From Candidatus Bathyarchaeia archaeon (GTDB taxonomy: Archaea > Thermoproteota > Bathyarchaeia > Bathyarchaeales > Bathycorpusculaceae): a stretch of DNA of 40,634 nt. Of the stretch, positions 29,482 to 40,479 are shown in pieces. The DNA is taken from assembly GCA_050012755.1 (NCBI GenBank), contig JBEKGO010000025.1:1-40634 (forward strand), written 5' to 3'. Under the pieces are notes generated by a model that made no database searches, had not been told where the DNA came from, and saw only the letters and a list, made by a program, of their open reading frames with translations. The position numbers and the translations under genes are program-made. Position 1 is the stretch's first letter. The number at the start of each line of letters is the position of its first letter.

Positions 29482-29793
29482 GGGCTGGCGAGTTGGTGTG
29501 TGGCTTTCGGACCCAAAATTTGGGTCTGAGGAAACTCCGCCCACGTGTAGAATTGCAGTCCCTCTGGGACAGGGCGAGAGCCTTGGCAACGGAGCAGAAA
29601 CGAAACGTCCAACTGGACTTGGCGATGACACATTTGTGATGTTGAGTGTGCCAGTTTGGAAGCGGTGAAACGGCCGTCCTGCAAGTGGAAAGGGCAAACA
29701 GTCGCTGATGAAGTCTCTACCTGAAGGCGCGGGTAGCCCGATTAGCCGAATGCCACAATAACAGAAGGCGGGTTACTGCCAACACACCAGCCC
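29482..29793 (+). ncRNA. rnpB: Archaeal RNase P RNA
   Basis: P4 halves GAGGAAACTCCGCCC (29528-29542) and ACAGAAGGCGGGTTA (29761-29775); terminal GGGCTGG/CCAGCCC pairing; hairpin GGACCCAAA/TTTGGGTCT; GCAGAAACG and GGTGAAACGGCC conserved blocks. Confidence 0.95.
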
Positions 29794-32785: not shown

Positions 32786-33625
32786 TTGGCGACACCTCAA
32801 AAAGAAATAAAAAGGAAGTTGCCCGGCATCGTTGATATTGCCTATGAGCAATACAAGCGTGATTTGCCACGTTGTCGAACTACGAGGGAACTAATGAGTG
32901 CTGATGTTGTTACGGTAACTCCGGAGGCTTCGCTTGATGATGCAGCTCAAATGATGGGTGAGAAGCATATCGGAAGCCTAATTGTAGTGAAGTATAGAAC
33001 GCCTGTGGGGATAGTTACTGAGAGGGATTTGTTAAGCAAAGTTTTAGCGCTTGGGCTGTTTCTAAAAGATGAAAAAGTGGAAGATGTGATGTCATATCCA
33101 TTATCTGGTGTTTCCTTGACGGCTAAGATAAAAGAAGTTGCCAAACTAATGATTAGTAAGAAAAGCAGACTTGCGGTGTTTGATGCTGGAAGCCTTATAG
33201 GTATAGTAACTGCTTCGGACTTAATCAAGAGTCTGCCTGATGTTCCTGAAACTGAGGTCAAAGTTGATGACTTCATGACAAAACGGGTTGTTAAAGCTGA
33301 TGAAGAAACATCCGTGTTCGACATAGCTAAAATCATGGGTAAGGAACGCATTGGCAGTGTCATAATAACCCGCAGAGGAGAACCGTTTGGTATTTTCACT
33401 GAACGAGACCTGCTCACAAATTTCTTAGCCAAAGGCAAGGCGTTGTTTAGTGAGGTAGGTCCCGAATGTTCACAGCCTCTGACCGTTATTTCCGCAGGCA
33501 CAAGCGTTCATAGAGCTGCCGCCACAATGGCTTTAAAACACATTAGACGTTTGCCTATCGTCAGAGATGAAAAGTTAGTGGGCATTATTACTGCGCGTGA
33601 CCTCGTCGAAGCTTATGCAAAATAA
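32786..33625 (+). CDS. Four-CBS-domain protein
   Basis: GIVTERDL, GIVTASDL, GIFTERDL, GIITARDL. Confidence 0.92.
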   Translation: MATPQKEIKRKLPGIVDIAYEQYKRDLPRCRTTRELMSADVVTVTPEASLDDAAQMMGEKHIGSLIVVKYRTPVGIVTERDLLSKVLALGLFLKDEKVEDVMSYPLSGVSLTAKIKEVAKLMISKKSRLAVFDAGSLIGIVTASDLIKSLPDVPETEVKVDDFMTKRVVKADEETSVFDIAKIMGKERIGSVIITRRGEPFGIFTERDLLTNFLAKGKALFSEVGPECSQPLTVISAGTSVHRAAATMALKHIRRLPIVRDEKLVGIITARDLVEAYAK

Positions 33626-33692
33626 TCTCCTTTCTTTTTTTGGGTCTCTTGAACTAAAGGTTTTCGCAAACCAGACCCTCTATCTAAATTTA

Positions 33693-34223
33693 CTACAATT
33701 GTAGATCAGCTGATTCTACTTTTCTTCGAAGAAGCCTTGACCGTGTTTCAGAATGAACCCTCTTGTCACTTATGGGAAGCTCCATGTCTTTGGCAGTCAG
33801 AACTAATATCTTTTGCACAAGTACTTGGGCGGCTCTCGCGATTTCTTTAATGGGCAGTGTTTCTTTGTCGCAGATGCCTATGCAGCAGCTTGAAAATGGA
33901 AAGTTTAATTCCAACTCAATCTTGTTTTTTTCACAGTTATAATCCACTATTGTAAACGGTTCGAGTCTGCAAACGGCTGGCCTCACATCATAGATTTCAC
34001 ATTTATTGCCCTTGGTAAGAAAAAAGCAGCTGTCGTCCTTTTTTCTGCGAATCCAAGCAATTCCTGTTTCATCAGTGGGCTCTAGAAAATCCTTGAAGCC
34101 TCTTGTTTCTATCAGTTTTTGTTCTGCTTTATTAACGTCGGGCGGCTGCATTCGGCAACAAACGCCACAGTTTTTGCATTGAAAGCCCACAGAATCAAGG
34201 AAGACAACGTTCTCAAAGTTCAA
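33693..34223 (-). CDS. YkgJ-family cysteine-cluster (CxxCxxCC) protein
   Basis: CKNCGVCC, CFFL, CEIYDVRPAVCRLEPF. Confidence 0.88.
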   Translation of the reverse strand: MNFENVVFLDSVGFQCKNCGVCCRMQPPDVNKAEQKLIETRGFKDFLEPTDETGIAWIRRKKDDSCFFLTKGNKCEIYDVRPAVCRLEPFTIVDYNCEKNKIELELNFPFSSCCIGICDKETLPIKEIARAAQVLVQKILVLTAKDMELPISDKRVHSETRSRLLRRKVESADLQL

Positions 34224-34839
34224 GGTGAATATGATTGGGAAAAATGGTTTATTTAGGTTGTGCGACGAAAATCAAATATTTTGAGGGGAATCGTTATGAG
34301 GTGCGGTGTCTAATTCTTTGTTCATTATCACCGTTGTTTGGGAGTGTCGGTTTTGACGATTAAGACTCTGCTCTGCGGCTGTGTTTATGAAGAAACTGAG
34401 TGGATGCTTGTCAGAATAAAAGAATGCGAAAAACACCATAAAGATCGAACCAAAAAAATAGAGTATAGACCAAAATCTGAATGTTGCAGAAACGACACAA
34501 GAGGCGAATAAATCTACATCAAATAGTAAATGTAGATTGCATTGTTGCTACCCATTTGAAGACGTGGCTAGAGCCGTTGATGTTTGAATCGGGGTTTAAG
34601 TTGGCGCATGAGTTGGATTTAGTAATGGGCTGGAATTTTGATAGGGCTGTGAGGTACCCATAAAGTCACCATAAACGAAGACCCCTAATATTACGACTGC
34701 AAAAATAATAAGGGCTGCTAAGGCTTTCTTATTAATGCTGTTCACCAAATTGCTATTCAGCAATAGTTTCATAAATAATTTGAGCAAAATGACAATGGAA
34801 GAATATGTTTTTTATCTGGCTACTTCAATTCAACTGAGT

Positions 34840-35151
34840 CTATTCTTGATATTTAGGACGTTTAGATTCCCTTTGCCAAAAATCGGGGTCCGCAACCAAA
34901 ATTACTTGAACTTCAACTACGTTTCTTGGATTAGTTATCACTGCTCTGAACTTCGGTGATAAATCAGTTTTAGCCAAAAAGGCCATTCTGGACTCTTCCA
35001 ACTGATCCGCTGTGCGCTCAGCTTTTTTATTTGCGTAGCCGCGGTACTTTACACTTTTTCTGCGGATGATGGCTTTATCAAAATTGTCCTTGCTGCATTG
35101 GATTAGTTTTTCGCCGTCTCGAATGAACCAGAATGGAGAAGTCTTTGGCAT
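34840..35151 (-). CDS. Hypothetical protein
   Basis: 103-aa ATG ORF, protein-like composition, no recognised motif. Confidence 0.45.
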   Translation of the reverse strand: MPKTSPFWFIRDGEKLIQCSKDNFDKAIIRRKSVKYRGYANKKAERTADQLEESRMAFLAKTDLSPKFRAVITNPRNVVEVQVILVADPDFWQRESKRPKYQE

Positions 35152-35350
35152 TATTATCGAGGCAATAGGGTCAGTTGACTGTTAATTAAGATTGTCGTAA
35201 TAAATTAGAAATTTGCCTCAGATACCAACTTATTTTTCAGTCATTTTGGAGAAACAGAATATCTGAAACTCCATTACTTTCGTGCAATTGTCTTCATCGG
35301 CACATAAGTAATTTCTGATCTTGTTAAAATTCGTAGCTTAGGGAAAAGGT

Positions 35351-36631
35351 CTATGACTCCTGTGTTTTTCGAATCGACGATTTAGCTCGCAGTACCGATC
35401 CTTTAAGGTCAATCCGTGCAGGACAAACATAGCTGCAGTGTCCACAACCGTCACATAAGTCAGCTTTAAGTTTTTGAAGTTTTTTCACGTTATTTTTGTC
35501 AAATGCTTCTTTGATCATTATCGGGCTTAAATTATGGCAGCATACAACCATGCATTCGCCGCATCTGATGCAATCCACTGTTGTTACGCTTTTGAATTGT
35601 TTTGCCTTGGGAAGATGAGGCGTTTTCTTTTCCAAAGTTGGTTTGCGTAATCCTACATTGTCCAACAATGGTGTGGTTAAATTCATTATTACAAGTGCAA
35701 GGATTGAACCTCCCAAGAAGTTCATATACGTTTGGATAATAACAGTAAGTACGCCTACTCCTGCACCGAAGATGGCTTGCCCTGTAAATGTCAATGGTGT
35801 AGATGCCGGATCAGTAGCCATGAAAAAAGCTAGGAAAATTGAGCTTCCTATGAACAGTTCGAATCCCAATCTGAGAAATAGGTCGCCACCGTAGACAGCG
35901 GTCATAAGAAGGGATATCAACGTAACTGTTCCAATGTAAGCTGCGGTTATTCTCCATTTGACGTATTTGCGACAGAGAATAAACAGTGCCACTCCAACTA
36001 TTATGACTGCTAAGCTTGAAGCTCCGCCTACCCAGCTATGAAACTTCAGAATGAAAAAAGTGTAGAATACATCTGAGGGCGAGTGGACTGTGGATTTACC
36101 CAGACAGTTCTGTATCCAGTAGGCAAAAGAACCCGTGCCACTATAGCCGATTGCACTAGTCAATGGGGGTAATCCTTGACCGCCAAAGGCACTTTCGTAA
36201 TGGTCTGCGGTCAACAGAATTGAGTTTAAGAAGGGAAAAAGAACCAAAAGCTTTGCAGCCGCTGCAGGATTCACATATTTCCTGCCCAGCAAGTTTTGAC
36301 CCTTCTTTAACCCTATCATGCCGAAAACAGCAATTACCGCCGCGAAATAGTATGCTTGAGGACCCGTAAGTGGCAATACCTCAACGGTGGCAATTGAAGG
36401 TAACCCTAAAGTGTATGAAAGGGCAACAATCAACCCGAAGACAGCAGCAGACATCGTGTTCATTGGCCCCTTGGCTTTCATCACTTTTGATAGCAAATAG
36501 TCAAGCACAACAGCAACCGCCACAGCAATCACTGAGATTATGATTGAAGTAGGCCAGTAAGAAATAGCGGAAACACCCGCGAGTATAACAAGCGCCACAA
36601 ATGTGTAGGTCATTAACTTATTTTTTGTCAT
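35351..36631 (-). CDS. RnfD/NqrB-like membrane protein fused to an RnfC-like 2x[4Fe-4S] domain
   Basis: NPAA, GGASSLA, GSSIFLAFFMATDPASTP, ALVIMNLTTPLLD; C-terminal CIRCGECMVVC..NLSP and CDGCGHCSYVCPARIDL. Confidence 0.85.
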   Translation of the reverse strand: MTKNKLMTYTFVALVILAGVSAISYWPTSIIISVIAVAVAVVLDYLLSKVMKAKGPMNTMSAAVFGLIVALSYTLGLPSIATVEVLPLTGPQAYYFAAVIAVFGMIGLKKGQNLLGRKYVNPAAAAKLLVLFPFLNSILLTADHYESAFGGQGLPPLTSAIGYSGTGSFAYWIQNCLGKSTVHSPSDVFYTFFILKFHSWVGGASSLAVIIVGVALFILCRKYVKWRITAAYIGTVTLISLLMTAVYGGDLFLRLGFELFIGSSIFLAFFMATDPASTPLTFTGQAIFGAGVGVLTVIIQTYMNFLGGSILALVIMNLTTPLLDNVGLRKPTLEKKTPHLPKAKQFKSVTTVDCIRCGECMVVCCHNLSPIMIKEAFDKNNVKKLQKLKADLCDGCGHCSYVCPARIDLKGSVLRAKSSIRKTQES

Positions 36632-36853
36632 CCAAGAATATTCTTTTAGTTTCGATATTTCCGCTCCGCTCCTTTCTAGTCAAAATTAGTTTGTCCATAA
36701 GCGGTGATTAGTTAATTAAAACTTTCTTAATTGTTCAATGCAGTTATCGATTGGATACTTTATCCGAAACAATCCGAAACACTTCAATTTATTTATTCAA
36801 TAAAGTAATCTGCGGAAAAGAACAAGCATTAAATTTGGCAATTTCTACTTATT

Positions 36854-39043
36854 TTGGCTAAATACGAGATGAACATGTTGGCTTCGCATTCTTTCCTCAA
36901 CAAGTCTCGAGCTATTCTGATATGCCTTTTAGTAATTGGTTCCTTTGCTGAGGTGGGCGCTTACTACTATGTTCAAAACTACACTTCTTATTCTTCAGCT
37001 GCTCCCACAGTAAGCGCATTTCAAGCAGGTAATCTAACGGTCGACCCTTATGAAGCCTTAGTCAATCATCCAGTAAACATTTCGATAGCCGTAGTTAATT
37101 TAGCAAATTCTCAGGGAAGCTATTCTTTAAGCCTCAAAATTAACGGCACAGTGGAAGAAACAAAAAAATTGACGTTTTTAGCCAATGAATCGCAACTAGC
37201 TTCGTTTACTGTAACCGAAGGAAACGTGGGCAGTTATAACGTATCAGTTGGCGATCAATTCGGATTGTTTACTGTCGTTACCACACCTACTCCGATGCCC
37301 ACCGCACTTCAAGTATCAAATATGTTTATTAATCCAGCTGAAGGCTGGCCTGAGCAGCTAGTCAACGTTTCAGTTGACGTAACTAACACAGGAAACGAAA
37401 CCATCAGTTATTCATTACCATTCTCAGTGAATGGTCAAGTTGATCAACACGTTCAAGTGGACCTTGCAGCAGGAGCCTCAGCAACCATAACAGCAACAGC
37501 AACTGAAGACTCCACTGGAAGTTACCAAATAACTGCTGGAGGCAGCATTGGTCATCTCACAATTGTACCAACAGGCGAGCATACGTTGCATGTAATTATA
37601 AACATGGATGGGGTACCCTTCACTCTAGACGGCGCACCTCACAATAGTCCATATTCGTCTCTGGTCACTGCTGGATCACACACAATTGTTGTTCCCGCGT
37701 CTGCAGTGATTGAAAAAGGCGGATGGGGTTCAGTAAACTATGCATTTTCAGGTTGGGACGACGGCTCCACTAGTCTAAGCAAAACGGTAGATGTGGAAAG
37801 TGAGATTTACGTGTCAGCAAATTACATTAGAACCTCGACTTCATGTCCTGTACTATCCGCATGGAATGGGATAAACTATAATTACGTTGCTGATGTTAAC
37901 GACGGTACAGGTTGGCTAGGCTACTTAGAGTATTTTAAACCCGATGGCTCAATGGTTTTCTCATATAACTATCCATATGATTACATAAAATTAGACTCAA
38001 CTCAACTTCAACCGCTCAATGGATTTTATAACTTACAAATTAGCGAACTCAATGACGAAATATTCTACATGGACTCAGTGAAACTACTTGCAGTTGATCA
38101 TCCAGCTAATACTGATGTTTTCTCGACAAAAAGCACCTTTGTCTACAATCTTACAGGTCAAGGAACAATTTACACCATAAGCAAGAACGTAGCTCCCCCA
38201 GTTTCAGCAGTAAATGGACAAAGACAAAATGTTCTGCCAATAATCTCAAAGCTAGATAATAACTTTACATTAGCAACAAGATGGACTTGGAATAATATAA
38301 CGCTTAATCTTGGCAACTTAGCTAATGCGAAGGAAATTAATCTTGTCGTTGGCGCCAAAATTGTGTGGCCAAGTACTCAGTCTGGAGGCAGTAACTTCAT
38401 GAGTTATGCTAACAAACCTGGAGTTATGCCTTCACCGCCACCTTATATGGAAGTTAAAGCTGAAAACGGAAGCTGGATTCCTGTTCCTACAAGCCGCGAA
38501 TTTCCAATTCCTTCTACGACAGATCAAGTTTTTGTAGTCAACTTAACAGGTCTGTTTCCAACTAACGATTTCGAGTTAAGAATTAACTACTATCAAGACA
38601 TTGAATTCGATTACATAGGAGTAGACACAACAGCCCAGCAAAACACAATTGTTCGCACTTTAACCGCCTCATACGCTGATCTTCAACAAGCATTCAGCAC
38701 AAATTCAAGCTCCACTGGAGCATTCACAAGATACGGCGACGTTACCTCACTGCTGCAATCAACTGATGATCAATTTGTTATCGGACGCGAAGGAGACCAA
38801 GTATCTCTGCAGTTTCCGGCGAATCTTCCTCCAGTTCCGCAAGGAATGATTCGAGATTACTTTGTTGTCGCAAACTGTTGGTTCAAAGGTTTAGGCTTGT
38901 CCTATGTGCCATTTACTGTTGATCCGCTTCCATTCCAGTCGATGACCAGTTTCCCCTATCCGACGACGGAAAGTTATCCTACCGATACAATTCACCAAGC
39001 TTACCTGAAAACCTTCAACACAAGAATAATCAATGCACGATGA
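36854..39043 (+). CDS. Large membrane-anchored extracellular protein: two CARDB/Ig-like domains plus a conserved 'SCP..WNG' C-terminal domain
   Basis: N-terminal TM; repeats 'VNISIAVVNL...G.Y' and 'VNVSVDVTNTG...G.Y'; SCPVLSAWNG, KLLAVDHP, FTRYGDV, VDPLPFQSM..FPYP, FNTR. Confidence 0.85.
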   Translation: MAKYEMNMLASHSFLNKSRAILICLLVIGSFAEVGAYYYVQNYTSYSSAAPTVSAFQAGNLTVDPYEALVNHPVNISIAVVNLANSQGSYSLSLKINGTVEETKKLTFLANESQLASFTVTEGNVGSYNVSVGDQFGLFTVVTTPTPMPTALQVSNMFINPAEGWPEQLVNVSVDVTNTGNETISYSLPFSVNGQVDQHVQVDLAAGASATITATATEDSTGSYQITAGGSIGHLTIVPTGEHTLHVIINMDGVPFTLDGAPHNSPYSSLVTAGSHTIVVPASAVIEKGGWGSVNYAFSGWDDGSTSLSKTVDVESEIYVSANYIRTSTSCPVLSAWNGINYNYVADVNDGTGWLGYLEYFKPDGSMVFSYNYPYDYIKLDSTQLQPLNGFYNLQISELNDEIFYMDSVKLLAVDHPANTDVFSTKSTFVYNLTGQGTIYTISKNVAPPVSAVNGQRQNVLPIISKLDNNFTLATRWTWNNITLNLGNLANAKEINLVVGAKIVWPSTQSGGSNFMSYANKPGVMPSPPPYMEVKAENGSWIPVPTSREFPIPSTTDQVFVVNLTGLFPTNDFELRINYYQDIEFDYIGVDTTAQQNTIVRTLTASYADLQQAFSTNSSSTGAFTRYGDVTSLLQSTDDQFVIGREGDQVSLQFPANLPPVPQGMIRDYFVVANCWFKGLGLSYVPFTVDPLPFQSMTSFPYPTTESYPTDTIHQAYLKTFNTRIINAR

Positions 39044-39164
39044 GGGAAAAATAATTTCCAATTTTCTAATTATTTTTTTCACCTAAATTTTAGCATCGGC
39101 TGAGAGAGTTAAGACTAAAAGATAGAAATCAAAGGATGAAGCATAGCAAACCTAGGCTTAAAAT

Positions 39165-39257
39165 CTAAGAAGTCTGTGTTTTGCTCTGCTTTGCTTTTTT
39201 TGCTTTTCTTTTCTCGTCTCTTTCTTTTTTGGTTAACGGTTTATCTTTTTTGGGCAT
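39165..39257 (-). CDS. 30-aa lysine-rich small protein (not in ORF track)
   Basis: MPKKDKPLTKKERDEKRKAKKAKQSKTQTS*; GGAGA 6 nt upstream of the ATG. Confidence 0.5.
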   Translation of the reverse strand: MPKKDKPLTKKERDEKRKAKKAKQSKTQTS

Positions 39258-39320
39258 TATTATTCTCCGCTCTCTATTGTAGAGAACAAGCCTTTAATAA
39301 CTTTCGAAAAAACAATCACG

Positions 39321-39662
39321 CTAACTGTATTCTCTGAAGGTGTGACCGCATTTTGTGCAGCGCATAAACTGAGTTGATGCTTCGTCGCCGCCTCGCGTTT
39401 GCACTTGCCAAACGTAAACTGTTGTATTATCGCATTTTTCACATTTCATGTGGATAGTAGGCATAGTTTTTACTTTCTGATCTTCCTCGCTAATAACAGT
39501 CATAAAAGGCTGAGATTTAGGTTGGATAACTTTTACTACTCTGGCTTGTGACCTGTTACCTTCTGCCTGTTTAACATAATTACATTTTGTGCAGGCAAGC
39601 ACCACGGTACCCTCACTTTTTTTGGGTTCAAGCCGACAACCGCAATCTGGACAAAATTCCAT
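39321..39662 (-). CDS. tfs: Transcription factor S (TFS, RpoM-like)
   Basis: MEFCPDCG, two Zn ribbons, QTRGGDE acidic hairpin, CTKCGHTFRE. Confidence 0.93.
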   Translation of the reverse strand: MEFCPDCGCRLEPKKSEGTVVLACTKCNYVKQAEGNRSQARVVKVIQPKSQPFMTVISEEDQKVKTMPTIHMKCEKCDNTTVYVWQVQTRGGDEASTQFMRCTKCGHTFREYS

Positions 39663-39828
39663 GATGTTAGAATACTCCCTTCCGAATAATTATCCTTCAA
39701 ATTAAATGGAATTATGGATATAAGCATTGTTTATGAAAAATATCCGAATTCGGGCAAACAACAATAGTTCTGTATTAGTCAAGACACAAATTAAATACAT
39801 TAGTAAATCTTTAGGCAAGCGATGAAAA

Positions 39829-40479
39829 ATGGATAAAGAAAGCAAACCAACCAGTGAATGGCAAAGCATCGAACATGCACTCGCGTATTTAGCAAGAGCA
39901 GACAAACTTCCTCACAGAACGGAAGGCGAAAGAGTACTTCTTGACCAAATTCCGTCAAATGCCCGACGTGTACTTGATTTAGGAACTGGAGACGGACGAC
40001 TGCTTGCACTAGTTGAACTTAATAGACCAAAAGTTGAAGGTGTTGCGCTAGATTTTTCGGAGCCTATGCTTGAACAAGCTCGGAAGCGGTTCGCCCAAAA
40101 CATGCGTGTGACCATATTAAAGCATGATTTTAGTTTTCCATTGCCCCAAGAGCAACTTGGAAATTTTGACGCTGTTGTATCCAGCTTGGCAATTCACCAT
40201 ATGACTCACTCAAGGAAAAAAGAGTTATACAAAGAAATATTCAATTTGTTAAATTCAAAAGGAGTTTTCTGCAATCTGGAACATGTCTCTTCACCAACGC
40301 AGAATTTGCATCTTAAATTTTAGGCGACGATCGGTTTAACTCCTGAAACTGAGGATCCGTCAAACAAGCTATTAGACGTCAAAACCCAGCTTCAATGGCT
40401 AAGACAAATAGGTTTCACAGATGTTGATTGTTACTGGAAATGGCTTGAGGTCGCGCTTTTAGTAGGTTTCAAACCCTAA
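39829..40479 (+). pseudogene. Class I SAM-dependent methyltransferase interrupted by an in-frame TAG (40321-40323)
   Basis: [21 protein letters not shown]; the frame continues 51 codons past TAG ([35 protein letters not shown]) to TAA at 40479. Confidence 0.8.

Follow-up and report, generated by a model that had tools for sequence, protein, structure and literature searches.

In a peat-type member of Candidatus Bathyarchaeia (assembly GCA_050012755.1), a gene for an RnfD-type membrane protein fused to a domain for two [4Fe-4S] clusters (gene A, RnfD-FeS) stands back to back with a gene for a stalked, predicted surface protein (gene B), which ends in an uncharacterised domain of about 400 amino acids (aa) referred to here as the SCP domain. 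The pair lies in a stretch of 40,634 nucleotides, contig JBEKGO010000025.1, which was analysed at its full length and is called the window. The same pairing recurs in related genomes and the two proteins diverge together, while SCP proteins of two other clades stand beside a non-homologous iron-sulfur (Fe-S) membrane protein of the NapH type. Judged from sequence comparison, this comparative signal is real and the specific pairing with RnfD is patchy. The reading preferred here, held tentatively and with a probability of roughly 0.45, is that genes A and B are a functional pair, inherited together and restricted to their lineage, in which membrane Fe-S proteins would deliver reducing power for the SCP protein.

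The source genome (2.41 Mb in 65 contigs) has an estimated completeness of 100% and an estimated contamination of 0.97%. The original prediction for this DNA had described a divergent gene pair with a spacer of about 220 bp, and both open reading frames (ORFs) lie where it placed them, 222 bp apart. The features of the pair are as follows.

35351..36631, minus strand: gene A, 426 aa, RnfD-family polytopic membrane protein with a C-terminal RnfC-type 2x[4Fe-4S] domain
35654..36622, minus strand: RnfD-like membrane domain of gene A, residues 4-326, with the invariant loop residue Cys176 and the FMATDP motif
35411..35581, minus strand: 2x[4Fe-4S] domain of gene A, residues 351-407, two complete CxxCxxCxxxC(P) motifs
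36632..36853, no strand: divergent spacer, 222 bp (243 bp if counted to the ATG of gene B)
36706..36726, no strand: conserved AT-rich spacer block GATTAGTTAAtTAAaAcTTTC, TATA-like, on the gene A side; putative promoter
36814..36834, plus strand: conserved spacer block GGAAAAGAACAAGcATTAAAT, 20-40 nt 5' of the gene B start; candidate gene B promoter
36854..39043, plus strand: gene B, 729 aa from TTG, or 722 aa from the ATG at 36875 (the database call, P0001)
36908..36967, plus strand: hydrophobic N-terminal anchor of gene B, about residues 19-38, placed by eye from the sequence
37307..37537, plus strand: CARDB domain of gene B, residues 152-228, within a beta-rich stalk of about residues 50-325
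37841..39040, plus strand: SCP domain of gene B, residues 330-729, predicted all-beta with a CBM32-like central jelly roll
37841..37849, plus strand: S330-C331-P332 motif of gene B, its cysteine nearly invariant across the SCP family

Recurrence and co-inheritance of the RnfD-FeS/SCP pair

A first survey found RnfD-FeS beside the SCP gene in 1 of 10 close SCP loci. In a wider survey of 79 SCP loci from species-representative genomes, based on a 12-row alignment (A2), a divergent RnfD-FeS gene lies upstream of the SCP gene in 12 (13 with the window), so that the adjacency suggested in the original prediction does recur among relatives. The proteins of these 12 pairs are 74-87% (RnfD-FeS) and 56-84% (SCP) identical to those of the window. 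Three different sets of flanking genes surround the pair. In context (a) it is preceded by orf103 and followed by genes for TFS and a methyltransferase; in context (b) it is followed by genes for a PQQ-PMT protein, a histidine kinase and an Rce1-like protein; and in context (c) it lies between the gene for an AsnC-type regulator and those for SepF and FttA. The pair, being found in at least three flanking contexts, is more stable than its surroundings, and on this comparison it is more than a chance juxtaposition. The same contexts also exist without gene A, context (a) at eight loci (L101, L102, L109, L115, L118, L119, L127 and L128) and context (b) at two (L106 and L108), and three loci keep the order orf103, SCP, TFS, methyltransferase without it.

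Pairwise identities of one protein track those of the other across 10 intact pairs (r = 0.83; none of 2000 permutations in a Mantel test gave a value as high), which indicates that both genes have been inherited together. The two AT-rich blocks of the spacer are kept among paired loci in an alignment of 9 spacers and are candidate promoters. A search for RNA sequencing runs covering 35000-39300 listed none. Metagenomic data suggest many more co-located pairs: 23 'longest contig' sizes are common to the lists of the best 120 SCP and the best 120 RnfD-FeS matches, 13 of them at or below 15 kb, location on the same contig being deduced from equal size only. At three loci (L100, L120 and L130) gene A, the SCP gene or both are split by frameshifts, reflecting either assembly error or real decay.

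Gene A, an RnfD core with a 2x[4Fe-4S] domain

Gene A matches PF03116 (NQR2_RnfD_RnfE) over its whole membrane part, residues 4-326 (E 7e-37; 127.8 bits against a cut-off of 27.7), and keeps the FMATDP region that is conserved in RnfD-FeS proteins. Residues 351-407 match 4Fe-4S dicluster (Fer4) models and residues 342-425 correspond to the C-terminus of the NCBIfam rnfC/RsxC models (E 2e-15), so that the RnfC-RnfD junction of Rnf and Nqr complexes is preserved as a fusion; the rnfD model is matched too, and all NCBIfam matches at E<=0.01 belong to Rnf, Nqr or ferredoxin families. A phmmer search against solved chains retrieved RnfD, NqrB and RnfC of 7zc6, 9eri, 8ahx and 7xk3, with E from 1e-13 to 1e-15 for RnfD/NqrB. 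All eight cluster cysteines (C354, C357, C360 and C364; C393, C396, C399 and C403) are invariant among RnfD-FeS proteins. By analogy with the position of RnfC in solved Rnf complexes, the 2x[4Fe-4S] domain is predicted to lie in the cytoplasm.

In Rnf, flavin mononucleotide (FMN) is bound covalently to a conserved RnfD threonine in an S/T-G-A-T motif, to which it is attached by ApbE. In 11 orthologues of gene A the position aligned with this threonine varies (SGT, SGS, GTS, GPG or ETS). The source genome has no match to ApbE (PF02424; control genomes positive in 8 of 14), none to RnfA/E (PF02508) or RnfG/FMN_bind (PF04205; controls positive in 4 of 14), and no RnfB-type partner gene was found in it. 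The lack of ApbE, RnfA/E and RnfG together with the variable FMN-threonine argues that gene A is not part of an Rnf complex and probably carries no ApbE-attached FMN. It further differs from Rnf and Nqr in lacking the NADH/FMN part of RnfC and in lying divergent from a surface-protein gene, outside any rnf operon. It also carries an invariant cysteine after the would-be FMN site: Cys176 (window 36104-36106) is present in 36 of 36 aligned Bathyarchaeial RnfD-FeS proteins and in both other RnfD-like paralogues of the genome, whereas the one solved bacterial RnfD aligned over this stretch (9eri_D) has no cysteine there. Solved Rnf structures and NapH-type proteins suggest that the loop bearing Cys176 would face outward.

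The two paralogues are a 718-aa RnfD-2x[4Fe-4S]-FrhB fusion and a bare RnfD of 373 aa. Elsewhere the RnfD core is fused to a full RnfC, or a full RnfC gene comes next after it, and four proteins of about 640 aa (P0335, P0337, P0343 and P0345) that are 75-77% identical to gene A have an extra C-terminal Rossmann-like domain, which PF01488 matches weakly (22.5-29.1 bits, the cut-off being 24.3 and two of the four scoring below it). From their sequences, the Rossmann-like, FrhB and RnfC parts appear as variable cytoplasmic input modules on one membrane core, and a single core with interchangeable cytoplasmic redox modules is what is expected for a transmembrane electron carrier. One of the four Rossmann-bearing proteins is on a contig of the same size (61509) as that of an SCP protein. 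The RnfD-FrhB fusion lies at G000:C10 21542-32538 of the source genome (L096), the usual home of the RnfD-like family. The gene set there consists of a 224-aa membrane protein without a Pfam match, a HemN-like radical-SAM (S-adenosylmethionine) protein, a winged helix-turn-helix membrane protein, a radical-SAM/SPASM protein and two PMT_2-like proteins of about 770 aa, and may be a system in its own right.

Gene B and the SCP domain family

The partner had been described in the original prediction as a protein with a transmembrane anchor, an immunoglobulin-like stalk and a domain of about 400 aa starting with SCPVLSAWNG, and these parts are present. The stalk matches CARDB (PF07705) in two stretches (E 1e-6 to 2e-8; 29.1-34.9 bits against a cut-off of 22.7), and the SCP region begins at S330. 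Gene B has 15 N-x-S/T sequons and no haem, flavin or Fe-S motif was found in it. By comparison with solved Rnf structures and NapH-type proteins, it is predicted to be extracellular.

No Pfam or NCBIfam model covers the SCP domain, even at E<=10. The family is large, with 2293 clusters at 50% identity matching at E<=1e-3, 1390 at 1e-10 and 389 at 1e-30; among clusters at 90% identity, 1786 of 5564 scored candidates match at E<=1e-3, and the best 120 of these matches are 61-100% identical and Bathyarchaeial where named. Three alignments were used, of 37 (A1), 12 (A2) and 13 (A3) sequences. In domain numbering, E82, D95, D148, G167, W221, L313, G327 and R347 are invariant in the 37 diverse sequences of A1, and S10-C11-P12 is at least 90% conserved in A1 and A3, its cysteine (C331 of gene B) being invariant in A2. 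Both cysteines of the region had been put forward as worth following: the first is thus conserved, and the second, C675 in the motif ANCWFK, is not conserved in any of the three alignments. A C-terminal tail, PLPF..M..PYP..YP, is a feature of the family and is present in gene B.

An AlphaFold2 model of the domain from the 37-row alignment is all-beta (predicted local distance difference test, pLDDT, 93.6; predicted template modelling score, pTM, 0.91). The Foldseek comparison put forward with the original prediction gave no convincing match to the whole model (best E 7e-4; template modelling score at most 0.24), and a profile of the domain against the sequences of solved structures gave nothing below E 0.26. 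With VIA-align, model residues of about 97-276 resemble the galactose-binding-like jelly rolls of CBM32, F5/8 type C and DOC domains and a phage tail protein, with Z-scores of 7.5-10.3, a range that the tool calls common (root mean square deviation about 3 A over 110-130 aligned residues). The jelly roll accounts for just the central third of the domain and comes without a sequence match to these families in Pfam; the flanking lobes and the SCP motif gave no outstanding match, although the lobes were not searched on their own. In the ESM Atlas the matches are unnamed 'hypothetical protein' clusters only, one of them with UnbV_ASPIC on 25% of its members. Three interpretations of the conserved cysteine were rejected: a sulfatase-type formylglycine motif, since the sequence is S-C-P-x-L without the arginine of that motif; a thioester adhesin domain, since the region contains no CGQ-type motif; and a lipobox, since the cysteine sits in the middle of the protein.

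Among the closest described architectures are bacterial proteins with TPR, FG-GAP and UnbV_ASPIC domains (CRTAC1/ASPIC-like, from SAR202, Acidobacteriota and Gemmatimonadota), whose C-terminal 400 or so residues are homologous to the SCP domain at about 28-36% identity, including the SCP motif and the PLPF..YP..YP tail. In P0199, UnbV_ASPIC at residues 681-748 is followed by the SCP match at 755-1030. Seven representatives of 1159-1195 aa all have TPR and FG-GAP domains, six of the seven have UnbV_ASPIC at E<=1e-4, and the SCP region comes directly after it. Among 15 bacterial SCP proteins scanned from 18 loci, 11 have TPR and/or FG-GAP domains and six of those 11 UnbV_ASPIC at E<=1e-5. The proposed resemblance to the C-terminus of bacterial FG-GAP/ASPIC-UnbV proteins was therefore correct. 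However, gene B lacks all three of these parts, having an anchor and a CARDB stalk instead, and neither of its halves matches UnbV_ASPIC (PF07593) at E<=10; on sequence grounds the SCP domain is a separate domain and not UnbV_ASPIC itself.

The original prediction had gone further, taking the pair for a stripped-down homologue of the pairing of UnbU (RnfD-like) with UnbV (ASPIC) in enediyne clusters. The co-occurrence of SCP and UnbV_ASPIC in single bacterial proteins is in keeping with such a link, and NCBIfam matches of gene A confined to Rnf, Nqr and ferredoxin families, like the missing UnbV_ASPIC of gene B, argue against it. So do the bacterial loci: in a small sample of 18 (Acidobacteriota, Gemmatimonadota, Latescibacterota and others), seeded from one subgroup and with cytochrome-fused forms not among them, none has an RnfD-like, NapH-like or DsbD_2-like gene within 7 kb. 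This search used local hidden Markov models on six-frame translations, and the RnfD model recovered 13 of 13 bacterial RnfD loci as a control. The neighbours seen were unrelated genes, including malate/lactate dehydrogenase, shikimate dehydrogenase, a sigma factor and sortilin/BNR proteins. RnfD-like genes beside ASPIC/UnbV-type genes were thus not found, the enediyne clusters themselves lying outside the sample, and a stripped-down UnbU-UnbV pairing is not what recurs in the archaeon. In the literature searched, UnbV and enediyne were not found together. With NapH-like partners in two of the three Bathyarchaeial SCP clades, which straddle the midpoint root, and RnfD confined to the third, descent from a UnbU-UnbV pair is extremely unlikely.

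A different kind of relative points towards redox chemistry. Among the 150 nearest SCP clusters (at 50% identity), 29 are multihaem cytochromes, counted from at least 4 CXXCH motifs; these proteins, which fall among P0130-P0256, have 5-23 CXXCH motifs and 929-2794 aa, and often contain two SCP stretches. All three representatives scanned, one from a Clostridia metagenome-assembled genome (MAG), have Paired_CXXCH and cytochrome c3/c7 domains, and two of the three have MtrC/MtrF. These fusions are an independent hint that the SCP domain works where electrons leave the cell. The resemblance to MtrC/MtrF-like multihaem conduits stops at the domain itself, since gene B has no haem motif and the source genome pairs SCP with Fe-S membrane proteins.

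Membrane partners of SCP proteins and their possible role

The source genome encodes a second SCP protein (G000:C2 39269-41605; 778 aa, 40% identical), followed on the same strand by genes for a DsbD_2/CcdA-like protein (PF13386, E 2e-23), a NapH-like protein, HGD-D, two BcrAD/BadFG ATPases and a small ferredoxin. The NapH-like protein (G000:C2 42444-43427) has a PF12801 Fer4_5 domain (E 5e-14) and two 4Fe-4S motifs, and the cluster k1 representative shows the same make-up. The HGD-D/activase set resembles an ATP-driven low-potential reductase and might feed the NapH-like protein. The whole row, G000:C2 39269-46472 (L095 6270-13473), is conserved in about 20 genomes. Over 81 mapped loci, a NapH-like gene adjoins SCP in 33 and DsbD_2 is found in 22, between SCP and the NapH-like gene. 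The NapH-like gene is accompanied by DsbD_2 and HGD-D in some loci and stands by itself in others, about 40-250 bp from SCP, and two loci show the reverse order; where alone, its context is an ammonium transporter, SCP, the NapH-like gene and then an RNase P protein on the opposite strand.

A tree of the SCP domain with 78 rows has three well-supported clades, A (27 rows), B (18) and C (33, with the window). In clades A and B together, 32 of the 45 rows have a NapH-like gene, with or without DsbD_2; in clade C, RnfD-FeS is present in 12 of 33 rows, basal subclades included. The simplest reading is that the link with NapH-like proteins came first, that RnfD-FeS took over when clade C branched off and that several losses followed, an order of events inferred from a midpoint root. 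On the same tentative footing as the functional pairing itself, RnfD-FeS/SCP would be one of two alternative pairings of stalked SCP proteins with polytopic 2x[4Fe-4S] membrane proteins. The general link between the surface domain and membrane Fe-S carriers drawn in the original prediction gains independent support from the 12 pairs, the NapH-like/DsbD_2 neighbours and the cytochrome fusions; the bacterial loci with their unrelated neighbours do not bear it out.

The distribution was also followed across the class in 151 genomes drawn evenly, each at least 80% complete. They contain 27 full-length SCP genes in 19 genomes, all belonging either to family f1 or to genus g19 of family f5. RnfD-like genes occur in genera g1 (5 of 6 genomes), g3 (3 of 3), g6 (3 of 3), g7 (1 of 1), g8 (1 of 2) and g19 (4 of 4), and neither they nor full-length SCP genes occur outside these six genera among the sampled genomes; the strongest NapH-like matches also lie there. 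Judging by coordinates, a NapH-like gene lies no more than about 1.3 kb from 13 of the 27 SCP genes.

Membrane polyferredoxins of the NapH, NosH, NosR, CcoG and MauN type serve extracytoplasmic enzymes. The arrangement is best described in these terms, as a membrane Fe-S helper encoded next to its extracytoplasmic client, the components here being an orphan RnfD core and a surface domain that is uncharacterised. As in NapH-type systems, a polytopic membrane protein with putatively cytoplasmic [4Fe-4S] clusters is encoded beside its would-be client, and true NapH-like genes (PF12801 with two Fer4) stand beside SCP paralogues. The parallel has limits: gene A shares no homology with NapH, its client would be an uncharacterised beta-sandwich protein for which no metal centre is known, and neither a quinone nor a NapG-like partner was observed.

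In the mechanism proposed, gene A, reduced to the RnfD membrane core plus the RnfC-type Fe-S domain that in Rnf complexes docks on this core, would take electrons from a cytoplasmic donor, either a ferredoxin or, in paralogues, the fused Rossmann, FrhB or RnfC module, and pass them through its membrane domain to the outer face. Outside, they would keep the invariant SCP cysteine or a bound metal reduced, or would reduce a substrate held by the CBM32-like domain. In clades A and B, found on either side of the midpoint root, this role would fall to a NapH-like polyferredoxin, alone or together with a CcdA-like DsbD_2 protein, and in clade C RnfD-FeS would have taken that place as a non-homologous replacement that was later lost several times. 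A predicted complex of gene A residues 1-345 with the SCP domain (alignments A5 and A1) scored 0.00 against a mark of 0.32 and counts neither way.

Several observations weigh against this reading. In clade C, 18 of 33 rows have no RnfD-FeS or other adjacent helper, some of them with otherwise identical synteny, so that the SCP protein needs no adjacent RnfD-FeS; mapped on the SCP tree, the RnfD label changes state at least 5 times and RnfD-FeS has been lost at least 4 times. In the even class sample RnfD-FeS adjoins only 1 of the 27 SCP genes, that of the window's own genome, and set against the 13 with a NapH-like neighbour this makes the RnfD pairing a patchy feature of a sublineage and the NapH pairing the common one. 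As related genomes are not independent, all of these adjacency counts are descriptive. Seen from the other side, SCP adjoins in only 2 of 67 Bathyarchaeial RnfD-type loci of the first survey, the other 65 lying elsewhere, and the usual neighbours of RnfD-FeS are radical-SAM genes and a 220-aa membrane protein. The bacterial loci, with no membrane Fe-S neighbour in 18, count on the same side, as do the variable FMN-threonine of gene A and the missing ApbE, RnfG/FMN_bind and RnfA/E. Beyond the cytochromes, SCP domains are fused to beta-helix/NosD, LamG, FG-GAP, pilin-like N-terminal, disintegrin and PPC parts, which fit a general binding module for plain adhesion or carbohydrate binding. Finally, about 270 residues of cofactor-free stalk separate the membrane from the SCP domain of gene B, which makes a direct wire unlikely and favours a flexible tether, a diffusible mediator or a role in maturation.

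Many of these points fit an explanation in which there is no functional coupling at all, the SCP protein being a non-redox adhesin or carbohydrate binder, gene A a stray paralogue with other partners, and their adjacency synteny inherited in one sublineage. Repeated loss of gene A with SCP retained, the location of most RnfD-FeS genes elsewhere and bacterial relatives without such neighbours make this a serious rival. It is strengthened by the CBM32-like subdomain, by the conservation of Asp, Glu, Trp and Tyr residues and by fusions to parts characteristic of adhesins and of proteins active on glycans. However, the pair outlasts its flanks and co-diverges, a non-homologous NapH-like Fe-S protein stands beside SCP in two other clades and in several arrangements, and roughly one in five of the domain's nearest relatives is a multihaem cytochrome; mere synteny with an adhesin is accordingly judged quite plausible, if short of even odds.

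A second alternative keeps the coupling and limits it to maturation, so that RnfD-FeS, or the NapH-like protein with DsbD_2, would prepare the SCP protein without sustained electron flow, for instance by a single reduction of a metal, by forming or reducing a cysteine-linked modification, or by keeping the cysteine reduced during export. Comparable helpers are NosR/NosH for NosZ, CcoG for the cbb3 oxidase, MauN for methylamine dehydrogenase and CcdA for apocytochromes, and this analogy with NapH-family helpers is joined by the single nearly invariant cysteine at the start of the SCP domain and by the CcdA-like DsbD_2 between SCP and the NapH-like gene in 22 of 81 loci. CcdA/DsbD thiol-reductant transporters offer only a partial parallel, since the window's own pair has no DsbD_2 beside it and no thioredoxin-like partner was seen in the loci. 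Moreover, the conserved genes of the loci include neither a modification enzyme nor a metallochaperone, the cytochrome fusions suggest continuous electron flow and clade C SCP genes persist without an adjacent helper, which leaves maturation alone a distinctly improbable explanation.

Beyond electron delivery for the SCP protein itself, the domain could be the substrate-contacting end of an extracellular electron-transfer route free of cytochromes. Electrons would run from the Fe-S clusters through the orphan RnfD core or the NapH-like protein to the stalked SCP protein, which would bind an acceptor outside the cell, for example a metal or material derived from humic matter or lignin, and help to reduce it; the bacterial SCP domains would instead be wired directly by multihaem cytochromes. 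This extension of the preferred reading is unlikely on present evidence.

The neighbours of the pair in the window, at 32786-35151 and 39321-40323, are genes for a protein with four CBS domains, a CxxCxxCC (PF03692) protein, a conserved 103-aa ORF without a family, a TFS/RPB9-type zinc-ribbon protein and a class I methyltransferase. None of them co-varies with the pair outside flanking context (a), and a second TFS-like gene of the genome lies on contig C15. Surface proteins of about 910 aa with PQQ-like beta-propellers occur near SCP or RnfD-FeS genes in 14 of 81 loci (among them L012, L099, L105, L106, L112, L118-L120, L128, L129 and L175) and at 15 places in the source genome, and this proximity may be due to chance because each genome has many copies of the family. 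The window also contains an archaeal RNase P RNA at 29488-29787 on the plus strand (RF00373, 186 bits), and no tRNA genes were found across its whole length.

In peat and sediments, few archaeal groups are as abundant as the Bathyarchaeia. One study credits Bathyarchaeotal MAGs with only RnfB, RnfC and RnfD by BLAST and with no multihaem cytochromes (PMC9534799). The literature searched contained no description of an RnfD-FeS/SCP pairing or of the SCP domain. The comparison defines a large family of uncharacterised extracellular domains, for which Pfam has no model, and it places the RnfD core outside Rnf complexes, with interchangeable cytoplasmic input modules. By tying this family genetically to two unrelated kinds of membrane Fe-S protein, and through its fusions to bacterial cytochromes, it provides a testable candidate for electron delivery outside the cell. 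As a candidate only, these pairings hint at a so far undescribed route by which electrons could reach the cell surface.

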